From sequence record PP400782: a stretch of 64,000 bases of DNA. The stretch is one strand, 5' to 3'. Source of the stretch: Escherichia phage FL31. The notes beneath the pieces are model-generated. The model had not been told where the DNA came from, ran no database searches, and saw only the letters and a program-made list of their open reading frames with translations. Below, piece by piece: positions 4,609 through 64,000 of the stretch. Each line of letters begins with the position of its first letter. The first letter of the stretch is position 1. A program made the translations under genes and the position numbers.

Positions 4609-4665
4609 CTTATTTCCTTGTTGTTTGACGATAGATTAATAATACCATACTATTCGTAAAGCATA

Positions 4666-4974
4666 TTACATAAGAAGCAAACGTTCTACCGGAGTACCAT
4701 CAACCGAAATTACTTTATCAAGACGGAAAGAACGCCACTGACCTAACTTGGTATCGAATGCTCGAACTGATTCACGAGGTTCATAACGAACTTCTGTTGC
4801 CGGATTGTTATTTTCATATTTGACTTCAAGTTCATCGCGGGAAGCAAACATAGTACGAACATCACCGTTAGCCTTTTCAAATACAACACAATGAACGCCT
4901 ACAGACAGAATAGTTTTAATACGTTCACGAAGAACCATAGTTTCTTGTTCAGTTAAAATCATATTATTCACCAC
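4666..4974 (-). CDS. hypothetical protein (102 aa)
   Basis: ORF track; between cd and 31. Confidence 0.5.
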   Translation of the reverse strand: MVNNMILTEQETMVLRERIKTILSVGVHCVVFEKANGDVRTMFASRDELEVKYENNNPATEVRYEPRESVRAFDTKLGQWRSFRLDKVISVDGTPVERLLLM

Positions 4975-5545
4975 AAAAGTTTCGGATTTGTTCCCAATTC
5001 AGAGAACGAAGATTATTACGAGAGTACTGAATTACTTCAATACCAGCTTGTTTAAGAATGTCTGCCCAATTTTCAGGAGACCGGTCATATAATTCTGCAT
5101 ATACAACCTTTTTAATGCCTGACTGTGTGATAGCTTTAGTGCAATCAGGACATGGAGAAAGTGTCGTATACAACGTAGCACCTTCAATAGAATTACCTTT
5201 GCGAGCTGCAAATAAAATTGCATTCAGTTCCGCATGGATTTCGTTATTAGCAGACCATGCACTATGAGCGGCCCGATGTTCTTTAGCCAAAACAAAATTA
5301 TCTGCCCGTCCAAATGCTGTAGTGCCTTCTTTATGACCAACAACGATGACCGGGCTTGGTTTATTCTTCAACCAGCCGTTTTCGGATGCATGTTCGCAAC
5401 AGTTAACGCCACCTGAAGGAGAGCCATTATAACCTGTAGAAATAATGCGTCCATCTTTTTCAATGACTGCGCCAACTTTCCATGAACAACATTTTGATTC
5501 TTGAGAAATCAGATATGCAATCTGAAGGTATGTGCTAGCTTTCAT
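4964..5545 (-). CDS. cd: dCMP deaminase
   Basis: 193 aa; zinc-binding HAELNAI and SPCPDCTKAI motifs; same length and position as T4 cd. Confidence 0.9.
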   Translation of the reverse strand: MKASTYLQIAYLISQESKCCSWKVGAVIEKDGRIISTGYNGSPSGGVNCCEHASENGWLKNKPSPVIVVGHKEGTTAFGRADNFVLAKEHRAAHSAWSANNEIHAELNAILFAARKGNSIEGATLYTTLSPCPDCTKAITQSGIKKVVYAELYDRSPENWADILKQAGIEVIQYSRNNLRSLNWEQIRNFCGE

Positions 5546-6537
5546 TATTGAACCTTATTAATATAAGTTAACAGCTCTTTAGTTTGTTCCCAACTGATGC
5601 ACGCATCGGTAACGGAAACGCCATAGGACATATTATCAGAAATTTTTTGATTTCCTTCATGTAGGAATGATTCTATCATAATTCCTTTGACCAAATCATT
5701 AGCTGCTAAATTTTTACCAATACCAATTTGATTGCTATAATGCCCAGCAGCGTTTGCATGGCTACAGTCAACCATTACATAATGATTCAGACCTACTGCC
5801 CTTGCTTTGTTAGAAGCTTCTTGAATATCAGAAGAATGATAGTTCGGACCGTTGGTCCCACCACGCAATACGATATGCGTATTCTGATTACCTTCAGCTT
5901 CAACAATGCCTACAGTACCATCGACGTCCATACCCATATACCGATGAGGCCAGGCGGCACTATACATCGCGTCTGTAGCTACTTTAATAGAACCATTGGT
6001 TGCGTTCTTGAAGCCTACGCACATCGGTAGACCTGAAGCAATTTCACGATGTGTCTGGCTTTCAGTAGTACGGGCGCCAATAGCAACCCATGAGAAAATA
6101 CCAGAAAGATACTTAATCGTGAATGGGTCTAATACTTCAGTTGCTAATGGAAGTCCCATACGTAGAAGTTTACGACACAATGTTCGTGCAACTATAAGAC
6201 CGTGGTTCATATCAAAACTTCCGTCAAGATATGGATCATTTACAAGACCTTTCCAACCTACGGTAGTTCGAGGCTTTTCAAAATAAACGCGCATCACTAA
6301 CAGAACATTAGGAAGACGAGTTTGAAGTTCAGCCAGACGTTTGCCGTATTCAACAGCAGCAATAGGGTCATGAATTGAACAAGGACCTACAACAATAAGT
6401 TTGCGTGGGTCTTCACCGTTCATAATCGAATTAACTTGTTCGCGATGAGAAGCCACTTGTGATGCGTAAGCTTCCGACAAAGGAATAATCTCAGCCAGTT
6501 CTTTTGGAGAAATAAGTTTTCCGACGACAGGTAACAT
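5545..6537 (-). CDS. 3-deoxy-D-arabino-heptulosonate-7-phosphate (DAHP) synthase-like protein, class I AroG/AroF/AroH type
   Basis: 330 aa; VVGPCSIHDP, MRVYFEKPRTTVGWKG, GARTTESQ, VGFKNAT, ILRGG, ESFLHEGNQ, SVTDAC align with E. coli AroG; stop overlaps cd start by 1 nt. Confidence 0.75.
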   Translation of the reverse strand: MLPVVGKLISPKELAEIIPLSEAYASQVASHREQVNSIMNGEDPRKLIVVGPCSIHDPIAAVEYGKRLAELQTRLPNVLLVMRVYFEKPRTTVGWKGLVNDPYLDGSFDMNHGLIVARTLCRKLLRMGLPLATEVLDPFTIKYLSGIFSWVAIGARTTESQTHREIASGLPMCVGFKNATNGSIKVATDAMYSAAWPHRYMGMDVDGTVGIVEAEGNQNTHIVLRGGTNGPNYHSSDIQEASNKARAVGLNHYVMVDCSHANAAGHYSNQIGIGKNLAANDLVKGIMIESFLHEGNQKISDNMSYGVSVTDACISWEQTKELLTYINKVQ

Positions 6538-6657
6538 AACAATCCTTAGGAGATATAAACAGATTCTGATTCAACAATACCTTTAACCGGATTAGACAGG
6601 CTAAGTTGGTAGTGCTCAGATTTATGACCATTCTCGATAGTAATGAGATAGCTCTCA

Positions 6658-6894
6658 TTATAGTGTTCCATATACTCGAGTTGCTTCAACAAGACCATCA
6701 CTGCCTAATTTAAGATTAGTAATTTGGTCACCATCTTTAGGATTAACGATTATGAGAAAAGAACGTGGAGATTCTTGAATAACTCGTAATGTTGCATCTT
6801 GGAAACGTTCAGACACTTTATTGATGAGTGCTTGAGCAAATTCTTTTACTTTAATCTGAAATTCGTGTACTGTAATTGGGTTTTCACTTAGCAT
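6658..6894 (-). CDS. hypothetical protein (78 aa)
   Basis: ORF track. Confidence 0.45.
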   Translation of the reverse strand: MLSENPITVHEFQIKVKEFAQALINKVSERFQDATLRVIQESPRSFLIIVNPKDGDQITNLKLGSDGLVEATRVYGTL

Positions 6895-6910: not shown

Positions 6911-6950
6911 TGGTAGAGTCATCATATCACAACTCTACGGTGTTGTAAAC
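6911..6950 (-). promoter_or_regulatory. early-type promoter (GTTTAC ... TATGAT)
   Basis: Minus-strand read; 7-bp inverted repeat GTAGAGT/ACTCTAC flanks -10. Confidence 0.45.

Positions 6951-7629: not shown

Positions 7630-7630
<1 letters not shown>
7439..7630 (-). CDS. hypothetical protein (63 aa)
   Basis: ORF track; abuts pseT start. Confidence 0.4.
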
Positions 7631-8716
<1,086 letters not shown>

Positions 8717-8717
<1 letters not shown>

Positions 8718-9016
8718 TATTTTATTCCTAAGAAAGTTTCAAGAATACGAATGTTATGCTCGCGCCGGTCTTTATTAATTTCAGCAACGTTTTTATTAAT
8801 TGACGTACTTCTAACGTTTGAAGAAATAAATTTAATCATATGACTTTTGAGTTGTTGCAAATCCAACCCTTTTTCTTTAGCAGCTTTACGAAGAGCTTTA
8901 CCTGCTTCATCTAGTGCCTTTGCTGCATCTTTGTCATAATTGACAAGTGACATTCCACGGCAGATATCAATATACTCATCAGACCGTTTGATGTAATTCT
9001 CTAGTAATGTTTTCAT
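8717..9016 (-). CDS. hypothetical protein (99 aa)
   Basis: ORF track; SD GAGGAAA upstream; early-type promoter 9037-9074. Confidence 0.5.
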
Positions 9017-9579: not shown

Positions 9580-9932
9580 TCTGAGAGCTTCCTGAGGTCT
9601 TCTGCAAAGGAATCGAAGGACCTGTTGATTTGTTTTTCGACCAATCCTGGTTTACTTGCCACCACGTTCTTCTTCTTCGAATCCTTACGGAGCTTTTCAT
9701 TTTCAGCCTTAAGTTGGTCAACTAAAACACGGTTCTTATAAGTCATTTCTTCGATTGACTGATATTGAACCTTGAAGTCGTCTAATACTTTAGCATTGTT
9801 TTTAGCAGTCTCTTTTACTGTAGCCAATTCAGTATTCAGCGAATCGACTTTATGGTTCAGAAATGCTATTGTTACAGTAGCAACAACCGCAAAAGCTGCC
9901 ACTACAATATATGATGCATTTACTTTAAGCAT
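9576..9932 (-). CDS. inner-membrane spanin (i-spanin), PseT.3-like
   Basis: 118 aa; N-terminal TM segment YIVVAAFAVVATVTIAFL then charged coiled-coil region. Confidence 0.6.
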   Translation of the reverse strand: MLKVNASYIVVAAFAVVATVTIAFLNHKVDSLNTELATVKETAKNNAKVLDDFKVQYQSIEEMTYKNRVLVDQLKAENEKLRKDSKKKNVVASKPGLVEKQINRSFDSFAEDLRKLSE

Positions 9933-10482: not shown

Positions 10483-11616
<1,134 letters not shown>

Positions 11617-11627
11617 TCAGTTAGTTT

Positions 11628-11662
11628 TTTAAATTGTACCACAATCCTTGTGGTATGTAAAC
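11628..11662 (-). promoter_or_regulatory. early-type promoter (GTTTAC ... TACAAT) upstream of gene 63
   Basis: Minus-strand read; -35 overlaps denA stop codon. Confidence 0.4.
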
Positions 11663-12072
11663 TACTTTTTCTTATGTTGGATATTCCAAGGCGGGTTGAA
11701 CTTTTTGATAAAAAGCGGTTCTTCAAGGTCCATTGTTGCGATGGTCATTGAACCAAGTTCGTTGGTGACTGAAAGGTCAAAACATTGGCGGGCCCAGAAT
11801 TCAACCTTTTTGCCTTGCATTAAGGCATCCAAAATCATAAGTGATTTTCTTGAATCTGAAGTCTGGTCTTTTCGATTTATGGCTGTTCGATAATAGTTAA
11901 TGCGTTTCTTTAAATTCTTGGTTTTACCAATATACACAAGTTCGTCATCTATAGCAATAGCATATATGACATTTTTCTTATTAGGGACATCAACTGTTTT
12001 AATTGTTGCATCTTCTAATAGCTCCAATTCTGTATATTTAATAAAGGAATATTCGGCGGCGATATCTTTCAT
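11662..12072 (-). CDS. denA: endonuclease II
   Basis: 136 aa; GIY-YIG-like VYIGKTKNLKKRINYY; position between 63 and nrdB. Confidence 0.8.
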   Translation of the reverse strand: MKDIAAEYSFIKYTELELLEDATIKTVDVPNKKNVIYAIAIDDELVYIGKTKNLKKRINYYRTAINRKDQTSDSRKSLMILDALMQGKKVEFWARQCFDLSVTNELGSMTIATMDLEEPLFIKKFNPPWNIQHKKK

Positions 12073-12080
12073 AATAAAGT

Positions 12081-12094
12081 GGGACCGAAGTCCC
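12081..12094 (-). terminator. UUCG-tetraloop hairpin between nrdB and denA
   Basis: GGGAC-UUCG-GUCCC followed by U-rich tract. Confidence 0.45.
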
Positions 12095-12098
12095 GTCC

Positions 12099-12601
12099 TT
12101 AGAAATATTTTTTGTATGAATTGATTACATTTTGGTCTACATCATTATCAATTTGTGCGACAAGATAAGAACTGATTTCAACTTCCTGAGGAGCTGCTTG
12201 AACTAAATCAGAGTTCAGATATTCACGAATCCAAGGATACGGATGCTTGGTCGGAGCATCAGTAATTGGACATGGCAAACCACACTGTTTCATACGAGAC
12301 ACAGTCAAGTAATCAACAAAAGCACACATACTCTGCGTATTGATACCTGGACATGTACCATCTTTAAAGAGGTGTGCAGCCCATTCCTTCTCTTGACTAT
12401 TTACTTCCATAAAAATGTCAACTGCTTCTTGTTCACATTCTTTAGCAATTTGAACCCACTCATCACCGTCAGTACCAGATTGAAGTTGACGGATAATGTA
12501 CTGAGTACCCTTGAGATGGAGTTGTTCGTCACGAGCAATGAACTTCATAATCTTTGCATTACCTTCCATAATTTCCATGTTCTTATGGAAGTTAAAGGTA
12601 C
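12099..12601 (-). CDS. nrdB: ribonucleotide reductase small subunit NrdB, exon 2
   Basis: In-frame continuation ...TFNFHKNMEIMEGNAKIMKFIARDEQLHL... of NrdB; proposed 3' splice site after intron-terminal G at 12602. Confidence 0.75.
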
Positions 12602-13692
12602 CGTTATGTTCGATTGAGCTCGCTAATTCTCAACCCGTTCTCTTATGAACTGCTACATATTACTATGCAGACCAGACTATATCACAATCCCAGAGGGATT
12701 CTCCCCATTTCGAGTCGCTTGACCCTACGTCCGAAGACTAGTCGTTGAACCTTGCTTTGCAATTGTCGCCGTGCCATCGTTTATATGTTGATGGTGATAA
12801 ATCTTTCTTATCACAATATGGACAATTCAATTGAATTCTATTTGGATTTAATTTACATCTATCATTATGTTTTAGATAAAATCCAGGACCTTTACCAATG
12901 TGACCGCAGAAATCACATGTGATTTCTTTTTGTGCAGGATGGGTTCCGTTCTTAACCATTTCTAATGTTTTTGCTGATGTTCTTTTCTTATGGTCTTCTG
13001 ACAAGAAATGATGTGAACCGTCATTTACCCGTTTTGATTGAGTTTCTGACTGCATTTTACCACCGCAAAATACATGAGTACCTTCTTTTATAGCTGCAAT
13101 ATTGCGTTCTTTAACTTTTGCAATATGCTCAGCTTGTTGAAAATTATGTATACCTAATGCAACTCTATTTAAATTAGATTTACGCTGTATTTCACCGTCT
13201 AAAAGATGAAATGTACCATTTTCTATCTTAGATTTAATAGAGGCAATATTTTTAGCTCGTACTTCAGGGATATTAAAAATCTGGATTTCTCTAGATTTTG
13301 CGGCTTTAGAAGCTAATTCAGAAATTTCTTCAGGAGAATATTTCATTCTAAGCTTTATAGCGTGACAAGCCTGGTAATCTTTTTGAGCTAAATGTATATC
13401 ATAATGTTCCTGTATAGAAAGGCACATCAAATTATCTAAATCATTATTTTCACGGTTACCGTCTTTATGATGGATTTCGTATGTTCTTCCATCAGAATCT
13501 TTAGGTATAGGTCCGTTAGCATCTATCCAAATTTTTCTATAGTTCAATTGTGCATCCTCTTAAAAGTATAATCATATTTATATTATACTAATTAAAGGTG
13601 CAAGCAAAACCTTGGCTGCTAGTTTTCCTATAAAGGACTTTCCAGCAATTAAAGGAGTTTTCGATAAACGTTACCGTTTAAAGGCGCATTTT
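12602..13692 (-). mobile_element. group I self-splicing intron in nrdB carrying a homing endonuclease ORF (about 1091 nt)
   Basis: NrdB reading frame interrupted between RFYVSFA and (C)TFNFHK; exon 1 ends in U, intron ends in G; boundaries inferred by frame reconstruction, not by folding. Confidence 0.7.
12738..13547 (-). CDS. HNH homing endonuclease, I-TevIII-like, full length (269 aa)
   Basis: N-terminal HNH motif YEIHHKDGNRENNDLDNLMCLSIQEHYDIH; C-terminal Cys/His-rich region CDFCGH...CPYCDKK...WHGDNCK; lies inside nrdB intron. Confidence 0.8.
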   Translation of the reverse strand: MNYRKIWIDANGPIPKDSDGRTYEIHHKDGNRENNDLDNLMCLSIQEHYDIHLAQKDYQACHAIKLRMKYSPEEISELASKAAKSREIQIFNIPEVRAKNIASIKSKIENGTFHLLDGEIQRKSNLNRVALGIHNFQQAEHIAKVKERNIAAIKEGTHVFCGGKMQSETQSKRVNDGSHHFLSEDHKKRTSAKTLEMVKNGTHPAQKEITCDFCGHIGKGPGFYLKHNDRCKLNPNRIQLNCPYCDKKDLSPSTYKRWHGDNCKARFND

Positions 13693-14368
13693 ACGCAAAA
13701 GATACATAAAAACGAATAGCTTCTAAGGCATTAATAACGTGTAAACAGAGGTAAAGAGATTTCATTAAAGCACGTTTAGCTTCGGCTTCTTGTTTAATAG
13801 CTCGGTTTAAACGAAAATCAGCATCAGGAGATTCTTTAGCTAGTTCTACAAATTCTTTAGCATTTTCCCAATAACGAGTTTTAACCAGAACATCATCGTA
13901 ATATTTACCTATTGATTCAGCTCGTTTCATGATTGCTTCGTCTAATACAATCTCATCAAATACCTTAGATGGATCGGTATAAAGATTTCGCATAATATGA
14001 GTGTACGAACGAGAGTGAATAGTTTCACTGAATGTCCATGTTGCAACCCACGTATCTAATGAAGGGTCGGAAATCAGTGCCATAAGTACCGCAGATGGGG
14101 CCCTGCCTTGGATAGAATCTAATAATGATTGATACTTAAGATTGTTTGTAAAGATGTCCTGTTGGAACTGAGGAAGCTTATTGAACTGCGCAGAGTCCAA
14201 CATCAAGTTTACCTCTTCTGGGCGCCAGAAAAACGACAATTGCTTTTCAATAAGTTCTTCAAAAACTTTATGTCGCTGAATATCATAACGTGCGAGGCCA
14301 AGACCAGAACCAAAGAACATTGGTTCATTCAAAACATCGACTTGTTGTGTGTTAAAAACTGTACTCAT
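13693..14368 (-). CDS. nrdB: ribonucleotide reductase small subunit NrdB, exon 1
   Basis: MSTVFNTQQVDVLNEPMFFGSGLGLARYDIQRH...LHVINALEAIRFYVSFA matches NrdB; start placed at ATG matching T4 N-terminus. Confidence 0.8.
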
Positions 14369-14422
14369 TATATTTCTCACTTAGTTATTAACTCATCCAT
14401 GAGTAAATTATAATCAAAAGTC

Positions 14423-16678
14423 TTAAAGCTTACAAGCAGAACAATCTTCAGCTTTAGGTGTTTCTAATTCATAGTCATCTGTACCTGACCCATCACGGGT
14501 GTTATGATAGTAGAGGTTTTTTCCGCCAAAGTACCAGAAGTAAAGCAGATCGTCAAGCATTACTGACATTGGCACTTTACCTTTCTCAAATACTGCAGGG
14601 TCATAGTAAGTATTAGCAGAAGCAGATTGGCACACCCATTTCAACATGATAGCAACTTGGGTCAAATAAGGTTTATTACCTTTCTTAGCAAGTTTCCACG
14701 CGTAGTCGTAAAGACTCATGTTATGTTCTATATTAGGAACAACCTGTCGGAAGTTGCCTTCTTTAGATTCTTTAATACTTACTGGACCACGTGGGGGCTC
14801 AATCCCGTTTGTAGAGTTCGATACTTGACTGCTTGACTCACAAGGCATGAGTGCAGACAACGTTGAGTTACGAATTCCATGTTCTTTGAGTTCAGCTCGA
14901 AGTTCTTCCCAGTCACAGACATAGTTCGGGGCTGCGATTTGGTCAATCTTTTTATTGTACCAGTCGATAGGTAATTCGCCTCTAGACCATTTAGTGTCTG
15001 AATAATACTCACAAGGTCCTTTTTCTTTGGCGAGTTTGATTGATGCTTTGATAAGGCCATATTGCAATCTCTCGAACAATTCATGGGTCAAATCGTTAGC
15101 GTCTTCATATGAAGCAAAGTTAGAAGCTAACCATGCAGCATAGTTCGTCACACCAACACCAAGATTACGACGCTTTTTAGCTTTTAAAGCTTCTGGAACC
15201 GGATAATCTTGATAGTCTAACAGGTTATCAAGTGCACGTACTTGTACTTCAGCAAGTTCATTAATTTTATCTTGGTCTTGCCAATCAAATTTATCTAATA
15301 CAAAAGCAGATAATGTGCATAAACCAATTTCAGCATCAGGACCATTCACATCATTAGTTGGAATAGCGATTTCACAACATAAGTTACTCTGACGAATTGG
15401 AGCTTTTTCACGAATAAACGGAGTGTAGTTATTCGTGTTATCAACAAACTGTGGATAAATTCGAGCAGTGCCAGAACGTTCAGTCATGAACAATTCAAAG
15501 AGTTCTAGTGCTTTGATTCTTTTCTTTCTGATTGTTGGGTCTTTTTCAGCTTTCTCATAAAGCTCACGGAATTTATCTTGATCTTCAAAGAACGAGTAGT
15601 ATAGTTCGCCTGACATTTCGTGAGGGCTAAATAAAGTAATATAATCATTTTTACCAAGGCGTTCCATCATAAGGTCATTAATCTGAATTCCGTAGTCCAT
15701 ATGTCGAATACGGTTTTCATCCACGCCTTTGTTATTTTTCAGAACTAATAGGTTCTCTACTTCTAAGTGCCACATCGGATAATACGCTGTAGCAGCACCA
15801 CCACGAATACCGCCTTGAGAACAAGATTTTACTGCAGTTTGGAAATGTTTCCAGAATGGAATAACACCTGTATGTCGAACTTCACCCATACCGATCTTAG
15901 AACCTTCTGCACGAAGCATACCAACGTTGATACCAATACCAGCTCGTTTAGAAATATATTCAATAATTGATGCTGAAGTTTTGTTAATAGATTTTAACGA
16001 ATCACCGGCTTCAATAACTACACAACTAGAGAACTGGCGAGTCGGAGTACGAGCACCTGCCATAATTGGAGTTGGCAATGAAACTTGATGAGTAGAAACG
16101 GCATCATAAAAACGAATAATATGTTTCAAACGGTCATGAGTTTCGTCTTGGTGTAAGGCCATACCAATAGCCATGATAGCAAACTGCGGAGTTTCATAAA
16201 TCTTACCAGTTGTTTTATCTTTAACCAGGTATTTTTCTTTAAGCTGCATAGCACCAGCATAAGTCAGGTCAAAGTCTCGTTCATGTTTAATCTGTGAATC
16301 GAGATAAATGATTTCTTCTGCTGAATATTGAGACAACAGCTCAGGGTCATATTTGCCTTCATTAACACAGTAAGAAATATGGTCGATAAAAGCAGGTGGT
16401 TCAAACTGCTCATATACATCTTTACGAAGTGCAAACATTAGACCTTTGGCGGCGACATACTGATAATCAGGTTCTTCGACAGAAATCGAGTTAGCTGCAA
16501 CTTTAATACAAATCTTCTGAATATCTTTGGTGCTCATCCCATCAACCAGATGAGTCTTAATTTCTTCATACAATTCGTATGGGTCAATTTGTGTTCCTTC
16601 ACATTGCCAAGTTAAGACTTGAATAATTTTCTGTGCATCAAAATTTTGTGATACACCACTGCTCTTAGTTACTTGCAT
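14423..16678 (-). CDS. nrdA: ribonucleotide reductase large subunit NrdA
   Basis: Class Ia RNR alpha motifs (NLCCEIAIP, C-terminal CSACKL); start moved to ATG preceded by SD GAGGAA; no intron. Confidence 0.92.
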   Translation of the reverse strand: MQVTKSSGVSQNFDAQKIIQVLTWQCEGTQIDPYELYEEIKTHLVDGMSTKDIQKICIKVAANSISVEEPDYQYVAAKGLMFALRKDVYEQFEPPAFIDHISYCVNEGKYDPELLSQYSAEEIIYLDSQIKHERDFDLTYAGAMQLKEKYLVKDKTTGKIYETPQFAIMAIGMALHQDETHDRLKHIIRFYDAVSTHQVSLPTPIMAGARTPTRQFSSCVVIEAGDSLKSINKTSASIIEYISKRAGIGINVGMLRAEGSKIGMGEVRHTGVIPFWKHFQTAVKSCSQGGIRGGAATAYYPMWHLEVENLLVLKNNKGVDENRIRHMDYGIQINDLMMERLGKNDYITLFSPHEMSGELYYSFFEDQDKFRELYEKAEKDPTIRKKRIKALELFELFMTERSGTARIYPQFVDNTNNYTPFIREKAPIRQSNLCCEIAIPTNDVNGPDAEIGLCTLSAFVLDKFDWQDQDKINELAEVQVRALDNLLDYQDYPVPEALKAKKRRNLGVGVTNYAAWLASNFASYEDANDLTHELFERLQYGLIKASIKLAKEKGPCEYYSDTKWSRGELPIDWYNKKIDQIAAPNYVCDWEELRAELKEHGIRNSTLSALMPCESSSQVSNSTNGIEPPRGPVSIKESKEGNFRQVVPNIEHNMSLYDYAWKLAKKGNKPYLTQVAIMLKWVCQSASANTYYDPAVFEKGKVPMSVMLDDLLYFWYFGGKNLYYHNTRDGSGTDDYELETPKAEDCSACKL

Positions 16679-16764
16679 ATATTCCTCGGATAGATTGATA
16701 GACATTACTCCAAACGGGATAGTATTTATCCCGTTAATTTATTATACACTTTTAAACTGAAGCG

Positions 16765-17019
16765 TTAATTATTCTTAGCAATAATTTCTTTGTATTCTTT
16801 AGGAGTCAAGACCGTAATATCGAAATAAACCAATGGTTCTTTTTCCATACCGTAACCACCACAAAATTCGCGATATTCATAAATTCGTTCGTGTGAATGG
16901 CAAATGAATCGTTCACCTTTAACTGTGATTTCACTATTTGGTGAAGGGATATCCAGTTCACTTGGATTTTTCATTTCAAAAATTGTGGTGCCATATGAAT
17001 TAATAAAACGTAAAATCAT
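16765..17019 (-). CDS. hypothetical protein (84 aa)
   Basis: ORF track; between td and nrdA. Confidence 0.5.
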   Translation of the reverse strand: MILRFINSYGTTIFEMKNPSELDIPSPNSEITVKGERFICHSHERIYEYREFCGGYGMEKEPLVYFDITVLTPKEYKEIIAKNN

Positions 17020-17020
17020 T

Positions 17021-18716
<1,696 letters not shown>

Positions 18717-43299: not shown

Positions 43300-44400
43300 T
43301 TACGCTGTGAAGATTTTATCCCACATCGCAACAACCGCATCTCGGTTATACTTCTTCCATACTGCTTCAGCACGTTTAACTCGAGCTTCGTATGTGTCAG
43401 TGAATTCTAATACAGCTTTTGTGTAAAGCGCAACTACTTCTTTCTTAGGAGTAGAGGAATCAATTTCTACACGCACAGTATCTGGGTCATATTCGAATGT
43501 CGCGTGCGGATAATCCTTAAAAACTAACTGGATTACAGGGACACCTTTAGAGATGGCTTCAATAGAACTATTCTCTACCGTACCTGTGTCAGGACACGTA
43601 TTAATAAGTGCTTTAGCTGTTTTAAGACGTTCCATGATTTCACTGTGTGGAGCATCAATAATAACAGGATATTTAGCTGGTGGCGCCCATTTGCTTGGAC
43701 AGTATCCTGCACCATTTTCGCCTAGTGCTTTAATCGCTTCAAGAGCAACATCAGTACGACGCATTTTAGTGTCATAACGTTGTGCACTAATAATCAGATC
43801 CGTCGCCGGAAGAACTTCAGGTTTCTCATTCAAACAAATAACCGGATAATCTTCGGCTTCAAACAACGGATTTGCTCGCCAATAATCATAATCAATTTTG
43901 TCAGTCAGACCTGAAGTCATATAACAATATTTGCGTTCAAATTCACGGAAGGCTTTAGTAGGAGCATAACTCTTACCACCGTTCTTATGAATTTGAATAG
44001 TCTGGTCCCAAATTTGAACAATGCCACGAGATACCGGTTCAAATGGTGTTGCCATAAAATTCTTATGAACTTTAGAGAGACCCGCGTCTTTAATTGCCTG
44101 AACGGTTAGTTTGGTCGGTTCCATTGTAACAACGAAATCATACTCATTAATGCCGGCTAGTTCAACAATCTTACGAGCCATAGTATAACTCATACCTAGA
44201 CTGAATTTAGTCAGATGACCAACAGGATGATGATTAACCTTCCAGTCACCAAACGTGTCATTATCAAAGCCGATATAATCAATATCAGCACCGATGGACA
44301 CAAGATATTTCAACACATTTAAATGTACTGCTTCAAGACCACCTTGTACACGTTCTGGGTTAAATGGGACTGCGCGAGATGGGATAAACATAACTTTCAT
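43300..44400 (-). CDS. putative GT-B fold glycosyltransferase (366 aa)
   Basis: C-terminal half has the GT4-type E-x7-E-like segment GTVENSSIEAISKGVPVIQ; lies between rIIA.1 and gene 39. Confidence 0.5.
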   Translation of the reverse strand: MKVMFIPSRAVPFNPERVQGGLEAVHLNVLKYLVSIGADIDYIGFDNDTFGDWKVNHHPVGHLTKFSLGMSYTMARKIVELAGINEYDFVVTMEPTKLTVQAIKDAGLSKVHKNFMATPFEPVSRGIVQIWDQTIQIHKNGGKSYAPTKAFREFERKYCYMTSGLTDKIDYDYWRANPLFEAEDYPVICLNEKPEVLPATDLIISAQRYDTKMRRTDVALEAIKALGENGAGYCPSKWAPPAKYPVIIDAPHSEIMERLKTAKALINTCPDTGTVENSSIEAISKGVPVIQLVFKDYPHATFEYDPDTVRVEIDSSTPKKEVVALYTKAVLEFTDTYEARVKRAEAVWKKYNRDAVVAMWDKIFTA

Positions 44401-63165: not shown

Positions 63166-63528
63166 TTAAAAGAATTTAAATTTTTTCTTGGTCCGTTCAT
63201 TAAAAGCTTGTTGTACTTGCATTGTAACACATTTTTCAACATGTGGTGCAAGTTCTGCTTTTCTGTCCTGGTCAAGAACTGCAAAGTCCATTACGATTTT
63301 ACCATCAACCCAGTCTAGTTTTGTAATATAGACTATATGATGAGAACCATCTTCAAGCGTAATCAGAATCTCTTGAATGACATTTTCCATTGCTGAACGG
63401 ACAATTTTAAGAGATTCATTAAACACTCGTTCTTTGCGAATGTCTTCCCCTTCCGAAGAAGGGGATTCATCAACGATTTCTAGATTTAAATCATCGAGAT
63501 TATTCATCGAAATCTTCCATTTCGTCAA
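63166..63528 (-). CDS. 40: hypothetical protein (120 aa), gene 40 position
   Basis: Position between 41 and uvsX as T4 gene 40; no independent motif. Confidence 0.4.
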   Translation of the reverse strand: MTKWKISMNNLDDLNLEIVDESPSSEGEDIRKERVFNESLKIVRSAMENVIQEILITLEDGSHHIVYITKLDWVDGKIVMDFAVLDQDRKAELAPHVEKCVTMQVQQAFNERTKKKFKFF

Positions 63529-64000
63529 GGTCGTTTTCTATATCTGCTGCAGACGGAGCATCAGAAGTTTTAACCGGAACTTTAGTTGTTGCTTTGCAAT
63601 TAATAAGGTCGTTAACAGCGTCATCAACTTCTTTAATAGAAGAGATAGCACCTAGTTTATATTTAGTTTCAATTGCATCTCGGAAAGGTTTGTGTTTAAA
63701 CAACGGTCCCCAGAATTCTACACAATCAGTAGCTTTAGCACGCCATGATTTTTCTTCACGAATCATTTCGCCTGTTTCTTCGTCAAGGAATTCACGAGCA
63801 TACCACCCGGCTTTAGGCTTAACTACAAAACCAATTTCAGTTGCCATTTCTAACAAGCCACTGAATGGGTCAATACCGCCATCAAAATTAACCGTGATCG
63901 GGAAAGTAGATTTCTCTTTAACTGTACGAGATTTTTCTGCTTTCAACGTGAAGTCATAACCGGTCAATTCAGTGCCATCTTTAACCTGACGTTTAGAGAT
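63500..64000 (-). CDS. uvsX: UvsX recombinase, C-terminal part (gene continues beyond window end)
   Basis: Frame open to window edge; acidic C-terminus ...DIENDLDEMEDFDE and position next to 40/41. Confidence 0.65.
   Translation of the reverse strand: MSKRQVKDGTELTGYDFTLKAEKSRTVKEKSTFPITVNFDGGIDPFSGLLEMATEIGFVVKPKAGWYAREFLDEETGEMIREEKSWRAKATDCVEFWGPLFKHKPFRDAIETKYKLGAISSIKEVDDAVNDLINCKATTKVPVKTSDAPSAADIENDLDEMEDFDE

Follow-up and report, generated by a model that had tools for sequence, protein, structure and literature searches.

A predicted type I-alpha DAHP synthase with a remodelled inhibitor site between pseT and cd in Mosigvirus phage FL31 and other T4-like phages

In E. coli AroG, Asp6 and Asp7 of the neighbouring subunit touch the bound phenylalanine. 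Q151/Q152 and S180/S181 contact the main chain of the effector, D155 is a stabiliser of the inhibitor site, and the changes P150L, S180F and F209A/S give feedback-resistant AroG (PMC9529685). In AroF, removal of Ile11 results in a feedback-resistant enzyme (PMC10729320). In T4-like phages, DAHP synthases make up phrog_5045, which PHROGs places in the class 'moron, auxiliary metabolic gene and host takeover', and the homologue of Kanagawavirus KLB31 was proposed in 2025 as an amino-acid auxiliary metabolic gene (PMC11845039). That proposal was the sole mention of a phage DAHP synthase in our full-text literature search, which found no functional study of one, and the Mosigvirus papers that we examined do not mention the enzyme. 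The gene is already known by annotation and as a protein family, and a supply of aromatic amino acids has already been proposed for it in print.

Mosigvirus genomes are also described for the sugars on their DNA, which carries mono-, di- and tri-arabinosyl 5-hydroxycytosine (PMC13326640, PMC13390438). The UDP-arabinofuranose donor is made from ribulose-5-phosphate via arabinose-5-phosphate isomerase, AfhE and AfhF (PMC13326640, PMC13390438), a published pathway that is complete without a DAHP synthase (PMC13326640). Thomas et al. 2018 (PMC6024577) is the source for RB69 ORF003c, encoded between rIIA and the topoisomerase gene, as candidate DNA arabinosyltransferase.

We analysed 64,000 nt of Escherichia phage FL31 (record PP400782), hereafter the window. 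The window is Mosigvirus sequence, 97–98% identical over 5–24 kb to Bas46/ChristianSchoenbein, mobillu, the O157 typing phages and others. The features around the DAHP synthase gene are as follows.

4964..5545, minus strand: cd, dCMP deaminase, directly downstream of the DAHP synthase gene (Pfam dCMP_cyt_deam_1, E = 2.9e-26; so annotated in relatives).
5543..5547, minus strand: TAATG, stop/start overlap of the DAHP synthase gene and cd (read from the sequence).
5545..6537, minus strand: predicted DAHP synthase gene, type I-alpha, T4-like-phage clade; 330 aa, ATG start (ORF, profiles, residues, AF2 model).
5549..6642, minus strand: 1094-bp segment present in FL31 and missing from RB69 (blastn of the window against RB69).
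6543..6547, minus strand: Shine-Dalgarno-like AAGGA, 5 nt before the DAHP synthase ATG and sharing bases with the 41-aa ORF's stop codon (read from the sequence).
6546..6671, minus strand: 41-aa ORF resembling the C-terminal half of a cd.2-type gene, of which it is a diverged copy (phrog_15876; phrog_1504 positions 44–76).
6658..6894, minus strand: cd.2 homologue, the upstream neighbour (Pfam DUF7320; phrog_1504; synteny with RB69 cd.2).
6921..6949, minus strand: sigma-70-like match, TTTACA-17-TATGAT with TG, upstream of cd.2 (consensus match).
7630..8529: pseT, upstream of the DAHP synthase gene (Pfam).
7913..7937, minus strand: MotA-box-like middle-promoter match inside pseT, pointing to the DAHP synthase gene (consensus match).

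The first-pass annotation of this DNA had described a 330-aa ORF with the signature blocks of a class I DAHP synthase, its stop codon overlapping the start of cd. Indeed, the ORF lies at 5545..6537 on the minus strand, and its translation contains every block: GPCSIHDP, MRVYFEKPRTTVGWKG, GARTTESQ, VGFKN, LRGG, EGNQ and TDAC. The overlap was also found, with the TAA of the DAHP synthase gene (5547-5545) and the ATG of cd (5545-5543) having one base in common within TAATG at 5543..5547. It is ordinary, because overlaps of 1 or 4 nt are the norm for adjacent same-strand genes in the annotation of phage Bas46 (98% identical). The cd.2 gene, the 41-aa ORF, the DAHP synthase gene and cd form a compact same-strand run of early/middle-type genes in a pre-replicative nucleotide-metabolism region, where the Bas46 annotation places cd, pseT, nrdAB, td and frd around the DAHP synthase gene. 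Located between cd.2 and the DAHP synthase gene, within the segment missing from RB69, the 41-aa ORF has an annotated counterpart in Bas46 (bas46_0049) and resembles the cd.2 of Kanagawavirus and Marfavirus more than that of its own phage. The sigma-70-like site at 6949-6921 is at most a possible start of a cd.2-DAHP synthase-cd transcript, since promoter-like sites are no more frequent in the window than in shuffled sequence. MotA-box-like matches numbered 12 in the window compared with 3.5 expected.

The encoded protein is almost certainly a type I-alpha (class I) DAHP synthase, as judged from profiles, residues and predicted fold. It matched Pfam DAHP_synth_1 (PF00793; E = 5.7e-75; 252.1 bits, cut-off 25.5), NCBIfam TIGR00034 aroFGH (427.5 bits, cut-off 173.2) and NF009395 (455.2 bits, cut-off 343), and PHROG 5045 over its full length (E = 5.9e-182), with no match to the KdsA (KDO8P synthase) models in NCBIfam at E ≤ 0.01. 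For residue comparison, E. coli AroG, AroF and AroH were aligned with 119 database homologues of more than 300 aa; AroG numbering is used. The metal ligands (C61, H268, E302 and D326), the PEP residues (R92, K97, A164, R165, K186 and R234) and the erythrose-4-phosphate (E4P) motif K97-P98-R99-T100 (KPRT) were invariant in all 25 phage-clade and all 97 bacterial sequences examined. In agreement, an AF2 model (pLDDT 92, pTM 0.92) matched the E. coli and N. meningitidis DAH7PS structures (1QR7, 1GG1, 4HSN and others) with TM 0.94–0.96 and rmsd 1.4–1.7 Å. The predicted fold is a (beta/alpha)8 barrel with N-terminal helices and the beta6a/6b hairpin, two extra strands at 198–214. With KPRT unchanged, the catalytic residues complete and no KdsA family match, a KdsA or an enzyme of altered substrate was ruled out. 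The first-pass assignment to class I DAHP synthase rather than KdsA is upheld, and the alignment to E. coli AroG that it called for showed all metal and PEP residues kept.

The same cannot be said of the label 'AroG-type'. Bit scores were under the cut-off for both the AroG equivalog NF006723 (364.1 bits, cut-off 568) and the AroH equivalog NF009396 (385.7 bits, cut-off 463), an AroF-named model not being among the NCBIfam models listed. The closest solved structure by sequence in a PDB search was E. coli AroF (6agm, E = 1.3e-104), with 353 bits for AroF compared with 309 for AroG, and the residue at AroG-211 is an AroF-like Gly. By these measures the phage enzyme is nearer AroF than AroG.

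Using the 330-aa protein in tblastn, we found matches in 212 of 50,697 phage records. Most of these (139) had at least 95% identity and were Mosigvirus; many of them already bear the annotation AroG, aroF, DAHP synthase or phospho-2-dehydro-3-deoxyheptonate aldolase, and the protein of vB_EcoM-172859UKE1 is 100% identical to that of FL31. A further 47 records had 60–80% identity (Kanagawavirus, Winklervirus, Marfavirus, other Klebsiella phages and EcS1), and 26 were lower still, including Bragavirus of Proteus. The same pseT–cd slot is used in at least five T4-like genera, namely Mosigvirus, Marfavirus, Winklervirus, Bragavirus and Kanagawavirus. The flanking 5 kb was matched by 833 records and spanned by only 139; therefore, T4/T2/T6-type phages are without the gene and about nine-tenths of Mosigvirus records have it. 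The supposition that this is not a common annotated feature of T-even genomes thus fails for Mosigvirus and several T4-like genera, where the gene is both common and annotated, and stands only for T4/T2/T6-type phages.

RB69 is one of the exceptions. Its pseT–cd interval holds only the small T4-like ORFs cd.2, cd.3 and cd.4, with cd adjoining cd.2, and the segment that FL31 has in addition is flanked by the direct repeat TAATGA[G/A]AGCTA at its junctions. Since RB69 is without the gene, the DAHP synthase gene is dispensable. As RB69, about one in ten Mosigvirus records and T4-type phages are all without it, any benefit must be conditional.

The phage enzymes form a clade restricted to T4-like phages of Enterobacterales, and its 25 sequences were monophyletic in 100 of 100 neighbour-joining (NJ) bootstraps. 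Their closest bacterial proteins are about 50–55% identical and spread over several phyla, and GC3 of the FL31 gene (29%) is close to that of cd (27%) and pseT (32%) compared with 50–57% in the aroF, aroG and aroH genes of E. coli. Recent capture from a host was ruled out, because bacterial homologues reach about 55% identity at most, those most similar belong to several phyla and the composition is fully phage-like. Between genera the enzyme is 59–77% identical, values that fall within those of its neighbours cd, gene 31 and pseT, and comparison with these three genes gave no signal of recent transfer between phage genera except for the cd.2 fragment (the 41-aa ORF). The dN/dS ratio was 0.04 against Bas46, where there are only nine differences, and 0.17 between Entb_45 and PEi26 (Kanagawavirus). 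These comparisons indicate that the DAHP synthase is an old, selected phage resident under purifying selection.

The phage clade differs from bacterial enzymes at the N-terminus and in the inhibitor site. Before AroG P19, phage-clade proteins have 8–12 residues compared with at least 16 in the 97 bacterial homologues, and they are without the residues aligned to AroG 2–9 and AroF 2–10 (about nine N-terminal residues). Comparison of the 25 phage and 97 bacterial sequences gave 13 clade-specific substitutions, eight of them within the segments 144–156, 175–181 and 205–223. Four of the 13 positions (Q151K, D155G, S180P and F209Y) are in the nine-residue inhibitor-site list taken from PMC9529685 (hypergeometric p = 1.3e-4), and the inhibitor site of the clade is changed further by P150I. 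At positions 150/151/180/209, 23 of the 25 phage-clade sequences have IKPY; bacterial sequences have PQSF in 88 of 97 cases and IKPY in none of the 97. D155G is likewise clade-specific in this comparison. Among the bacteria, positions 151, 155, 180 and 209 are 97–100% conserved and P150 is 93% conserved. In IMG/VR, DAHP synthases are encoded on 121 viral contigs, and many of these contigs are giant-virus MAG bins with a canonical bacterial-type site. Among 80 viral-contig DAHP synthases from IMG/VR, IKPY was present only in the five with the phage-clade N-terminal truncation, of which at least three come from genomes of about 170 kb, including EcS1.

The phage protein therefore does not have the isozyme-type effector site, i.e. 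P150, Q151, D155, S180 and F209 together with the N-terminal segment. From an altered allosteric site beside an unchanged active site, and from the N-terminal loss, we infer that inhibition by aromatic amino acids has been lost; insensitivity of the phage DAHP synthase to Tyr, Phe and Trp is fairly likely. The first-pass suggestion of a feedback-insensitive enzyme agrees with the rebuilt inhibitor site and the truncation, and survives as a prediction. The characterised resistant mutants, which carry Ala, Phe or Leu, are not equivalent to the Lys, Pro and Tyr found here. Because the beta6a/6b hairpin, part of the effector site, is kept in the AF2 model and the pocket residues P147, L179 and G211 are AroF-like, the modelled pocket may persist, binding Tyr weakly or another ligand. 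This change to the inhibitor site throughout the clade is the only new point of our analysis, and a small addition to what is known of the family.

Our best reading, held with some confidence, is that the encoded enzyme is constitutively active and feeds the infected cell's shikimate pathway. Presumably made in the early or middle phase of infection, it would condense PEP and E4P to DAHP, the reaction that opens this pathway, and Tyr, Phe and Trp, which throttle the three host isozymes, would not inhibit it. After shut-off of host gene expression, PEP and E4P would still flow to DAHP and, via surviving host enzymes, to chorismate. This could supply aromatic amino acids for phage protein synthesis and possibly chorismate-derived cofactors (folate and quinone precursors). 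As a physiological rationale, precursor supply after host shut-off is plausible but tentative. In this scheme we infer enzyme activity, lost feedback inhibition, expression timing and physiological benefit alike. If correct, the phage protein is potentially a natural, evolution-tested deregulated type I-alpha DAHP synthase, a type sought in the metabolic engineering of aromatic compounds. It also offers a way to ask why a supply of amino-acid precursors is found in some virulent T4-like phages and not in close relatives such as RB69, a question that is testable because natural presence/absence pairs exist within one genus.

An ordinary Tyr-regulated, AroF-like isozyme that simply adds enzyme dosage, with the site substitutions as neutral drift in the phage lineage, is the alternative that survives best, though it is unlikely. 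AroF is the closest relative, Gly at 211 is a Tyr-type determinant, P147 and L179 are as in AroF, and the hairpin is kept in the AF2 model. However, positions that are 97–100% conserved in 97 bacteria are fixed differently across phage genera only 58–77% identical to the FL31 protein, which therefore argues for selection and not drift, and AroF is desensitised by alteration of an N-terminal segment that the phage protein does not have.

We give less weight still to the idea that the rebuilt pocket now serves another ligand, probably an anionic one. A more positive pocket is expected because Lys151 is gained and Asp155 and acidic N-terminal residues are lost, and candidate ligands are chorismate, prephenate or a phage-specific nucleotide or sugar-phosphate. 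Under such control, shikimate entry or the drain on PEP and E4P would track the metabolic state of the phage and not host aromatic pools.

The first-pass annotation had raised a role in making an unusual sugar with the glycosyltransferase at 43300–44400, and had proposed a survey for their co-occurrence. The ORF at 43300..44400 that encodes the glycosyltransferase shares 99% identity with RB69 ORF003c, and the isomerase, AfhE and AfhF genes lie between the DNA polymerase gene and uvsX, just past the window end. RB69 has the arabinose module and ORF003c, and its DAHP synthase gene is missing. Among phage records, 275 had arabinose-5-phosphate isomerase compared with 212 for DAHP synthase. Klebsiella-phage records included 25 with DAHP synthase and at most three with an isomerase match, and 57 Acinetobacter-phage records had the isomerase. 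Four records named for Acinetobacter matched the DAHP synthase; these derive from metagenomes, and the two inspected are short 'phage MD-2021a' contigs. With exceptions in both directions (RB69 and Acinetobacter phages on one side, Klebsiella phages on the other), the link to DNA arabinosylation was ruled out and the suggested co-occurrence with the arabinosylation module was not borne out. The overlap between isomerase and DAHP synthase that these records do show follows the shared ancestry of the enterobacterial T4-like genera.

These exceptions also weigh against the enzyme acting mainly as an irreversible sink for E4P and/or PEP that re-routes central carbon, with DAHP as a by-product, which we regard as improbable. 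The transketolase reaction, for example, would then be pulled towards pentose phosphates for nucleotides and arabinose. Such a role would fit a gene located among nucleotide-metabolism genes (cd, pseT, nrdAB, td and frd), and many carriers also divert ribulose-5-phosphate to UDP-arabinose (PMC13326640). However, removal of E4P would also starve the transaldolase step that gives further pentoses; moreover, carriers without the arabinose module exist (Klebsiella phages), as do arabinosylating phages without DAHP synthase (RB69 and Acinetobacter phages).

Very little probability attaches to the unusual sugar itself, e.g. an octulosonate made from arabinose-5-phosphate and used by the 43300–44400 glycosyltransferase for DNA or surface modification. 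E. coli DAHP synthase does take pentose-5-phosphates, albeit poorly, the phage makes arabinose-5-phosphate, and most Mosigvirus genomes carry both genes. Yet the near-identical ORF003c is present in RB69, which has arabinosylated DNA and no DAHP synthase, the E4P-binding KPRT is unchanged with no KdsA family match, and the arabinosyl modifications have their complete donor pathway without DAHP synthase (PMC13326640, PMC13390438). Least credible of all is a non-catalytic or moonlighting remnant, given catalytic residues invariant across the clade, dN/dS well below 1 and a fold fully kept in the AF2 model.

Returning to the feedback-insensitive shikimate-pathway enzyme that we favour, its closest E. 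coli counterpart is the Tyr-sensitive AroF (PDB 6AGM/6AGL). The two have in common the type I-alpha family, the fold and the catalytic, PEP and E4P residues, and they are alike in Pro at 147 and in Gly at AroG-211, the Tyr/Phe-discriminating position. In contrast, AroF residues 2–10 are without counterpart in the phage protein, AroG positions 150/151/155/180/209 are I, K, G, P and Y in the phage and P, Q, D, S and F in AroF, and the phage protein has two short internal deletions near its C-terminus. The corrected distance between the two proteins was 0.77 in the NJ analysis. Compared with the feedback-resistant alleles of the Phe-sensitive E. coli AroG (P150L, S180F, F209A/S and Q151 variants), the phage enzyme is altered at the same positions, but its natural Ile, Lys, Pro and Tyr differ from the engineered residues and are accompanied by an N-terminal truncation. 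KDO8P synthase (KdsA) has Pfam PF00793 and PEP-aldol chemistry in common with the phage enzyme, which differs in its KPRT motif, its metal-binding Cys and its I-alpha decorations at the N-terminus and hairpin. Finally, there is no difference from PHROG 5045, the GenBank 'phospho-2-dehydro-3-deoxyheptonate aldolase' of T4-like phages: the FL31 gene is the same gene as that of the named carriers, which include the O157 typing phages, Shf125875, Bas46, HY126, PEi20/26, X20, phiP4-3 and KLB31.

The DAHP synthase gene and the 41-aa ORF next to it make up a 1094-bp segment that is missing in RB69 (region 5549-6671 of the window, compared with 8237-8255 of the RB69 locus), and in the window this segment is flanked by a direct repeat, TAATGA[G/A]AGCTA. 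The 41-aa ORF is a piece of a cd.2-type gene, and it aligns better with the cd.2 genes of Kanagawavirus and Marfavirus (alignment scores of 60-71) than with the phage's own cd.2 (score of 30). This pattern suggests one of two histories: Mosigvirus acquired the cassette from a different T4-like lineage through microhomology recombination, or the cassette was deleted from RB69 exactly between the two repeat copies.

In the NJ tree, the phage clade had as its closest neighbour P0115, a 374-aa protein from a JGI metagenome. Its N-terminus is long, with 45 residues ahead of the position of AroG Pro19, and its inhibitor site (A, G, P and H at positions 150, 151, 180 and 209 in AroG numbering) represents a third pattern besides PQSF and IKPY. 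Aeromonas phage HJ05 (79-kb genome, unclassified below Caudoviricetes) does not appear T4-like; it encodes a 38%-identical DAHP synthase at 4899-6062, surrounded by unannotated genes, which may be an independent acquisition. Type I-alpha DAHP synthases were also encoded on 121 contigs listed as viral in IMG/VR, many of which are giant-virus MAG bins; these enzymes may be genuinely viral or may reflect contaminated bins. The inhibitor site was read in 80 of these enzymes (loci L015-L094) and was the canonical PQSF in 68; position 151 was His in five and Glu in one, and position 150 was Ala in two.

The whole window was searched for a MotA-box-like middle-promoter pattern (TGCTTNA-N11-13-TANNNT), giving 12 matches compared with 3.5 expected, a number reached in none of 100 shuffles. 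Most were on the strand of the early and middle genes, for example:

4639-4663, minus strand, pattern match
7913-7937, minus strand, pattern match
9906-9931, minus strand, pattern match
17934-17957, minus strand, pattern match

On the same strand, a 99-aa ORF adjoining pseT (8717-9016) is the counterpart of bas46_0056, annotated in phage ChristianSchoenbein as a 'putative homing endonuclease'.

A glycosyltransferase ORF is located further along the window:

43300-44400, minus strand, 366-aa ORF, flanked by rIIA.1 and the gene for the large subunit of topoisomerase

Its PHROG match is phrog_8302 ('unknown function'), and it shares 99% identity with RB69 ORF003c, a proposed DNA arabinosyltransferase. 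At its far end (63500-64000) the window stops within uvsX, shortly before the arabinosyl-5-hydroxycytosine cluster comprising genes for an arabinose-5-P isomerase, a bifunctional kinase/nucleotidyltransferase, a phosphatase and a ThyA-like 5-hydroxy-dCMP synthase, together with a thymidylate-kinase-like gene; the corresponding region in O157 typing phage 3 is 10942-17491 of the compared locus (L002).
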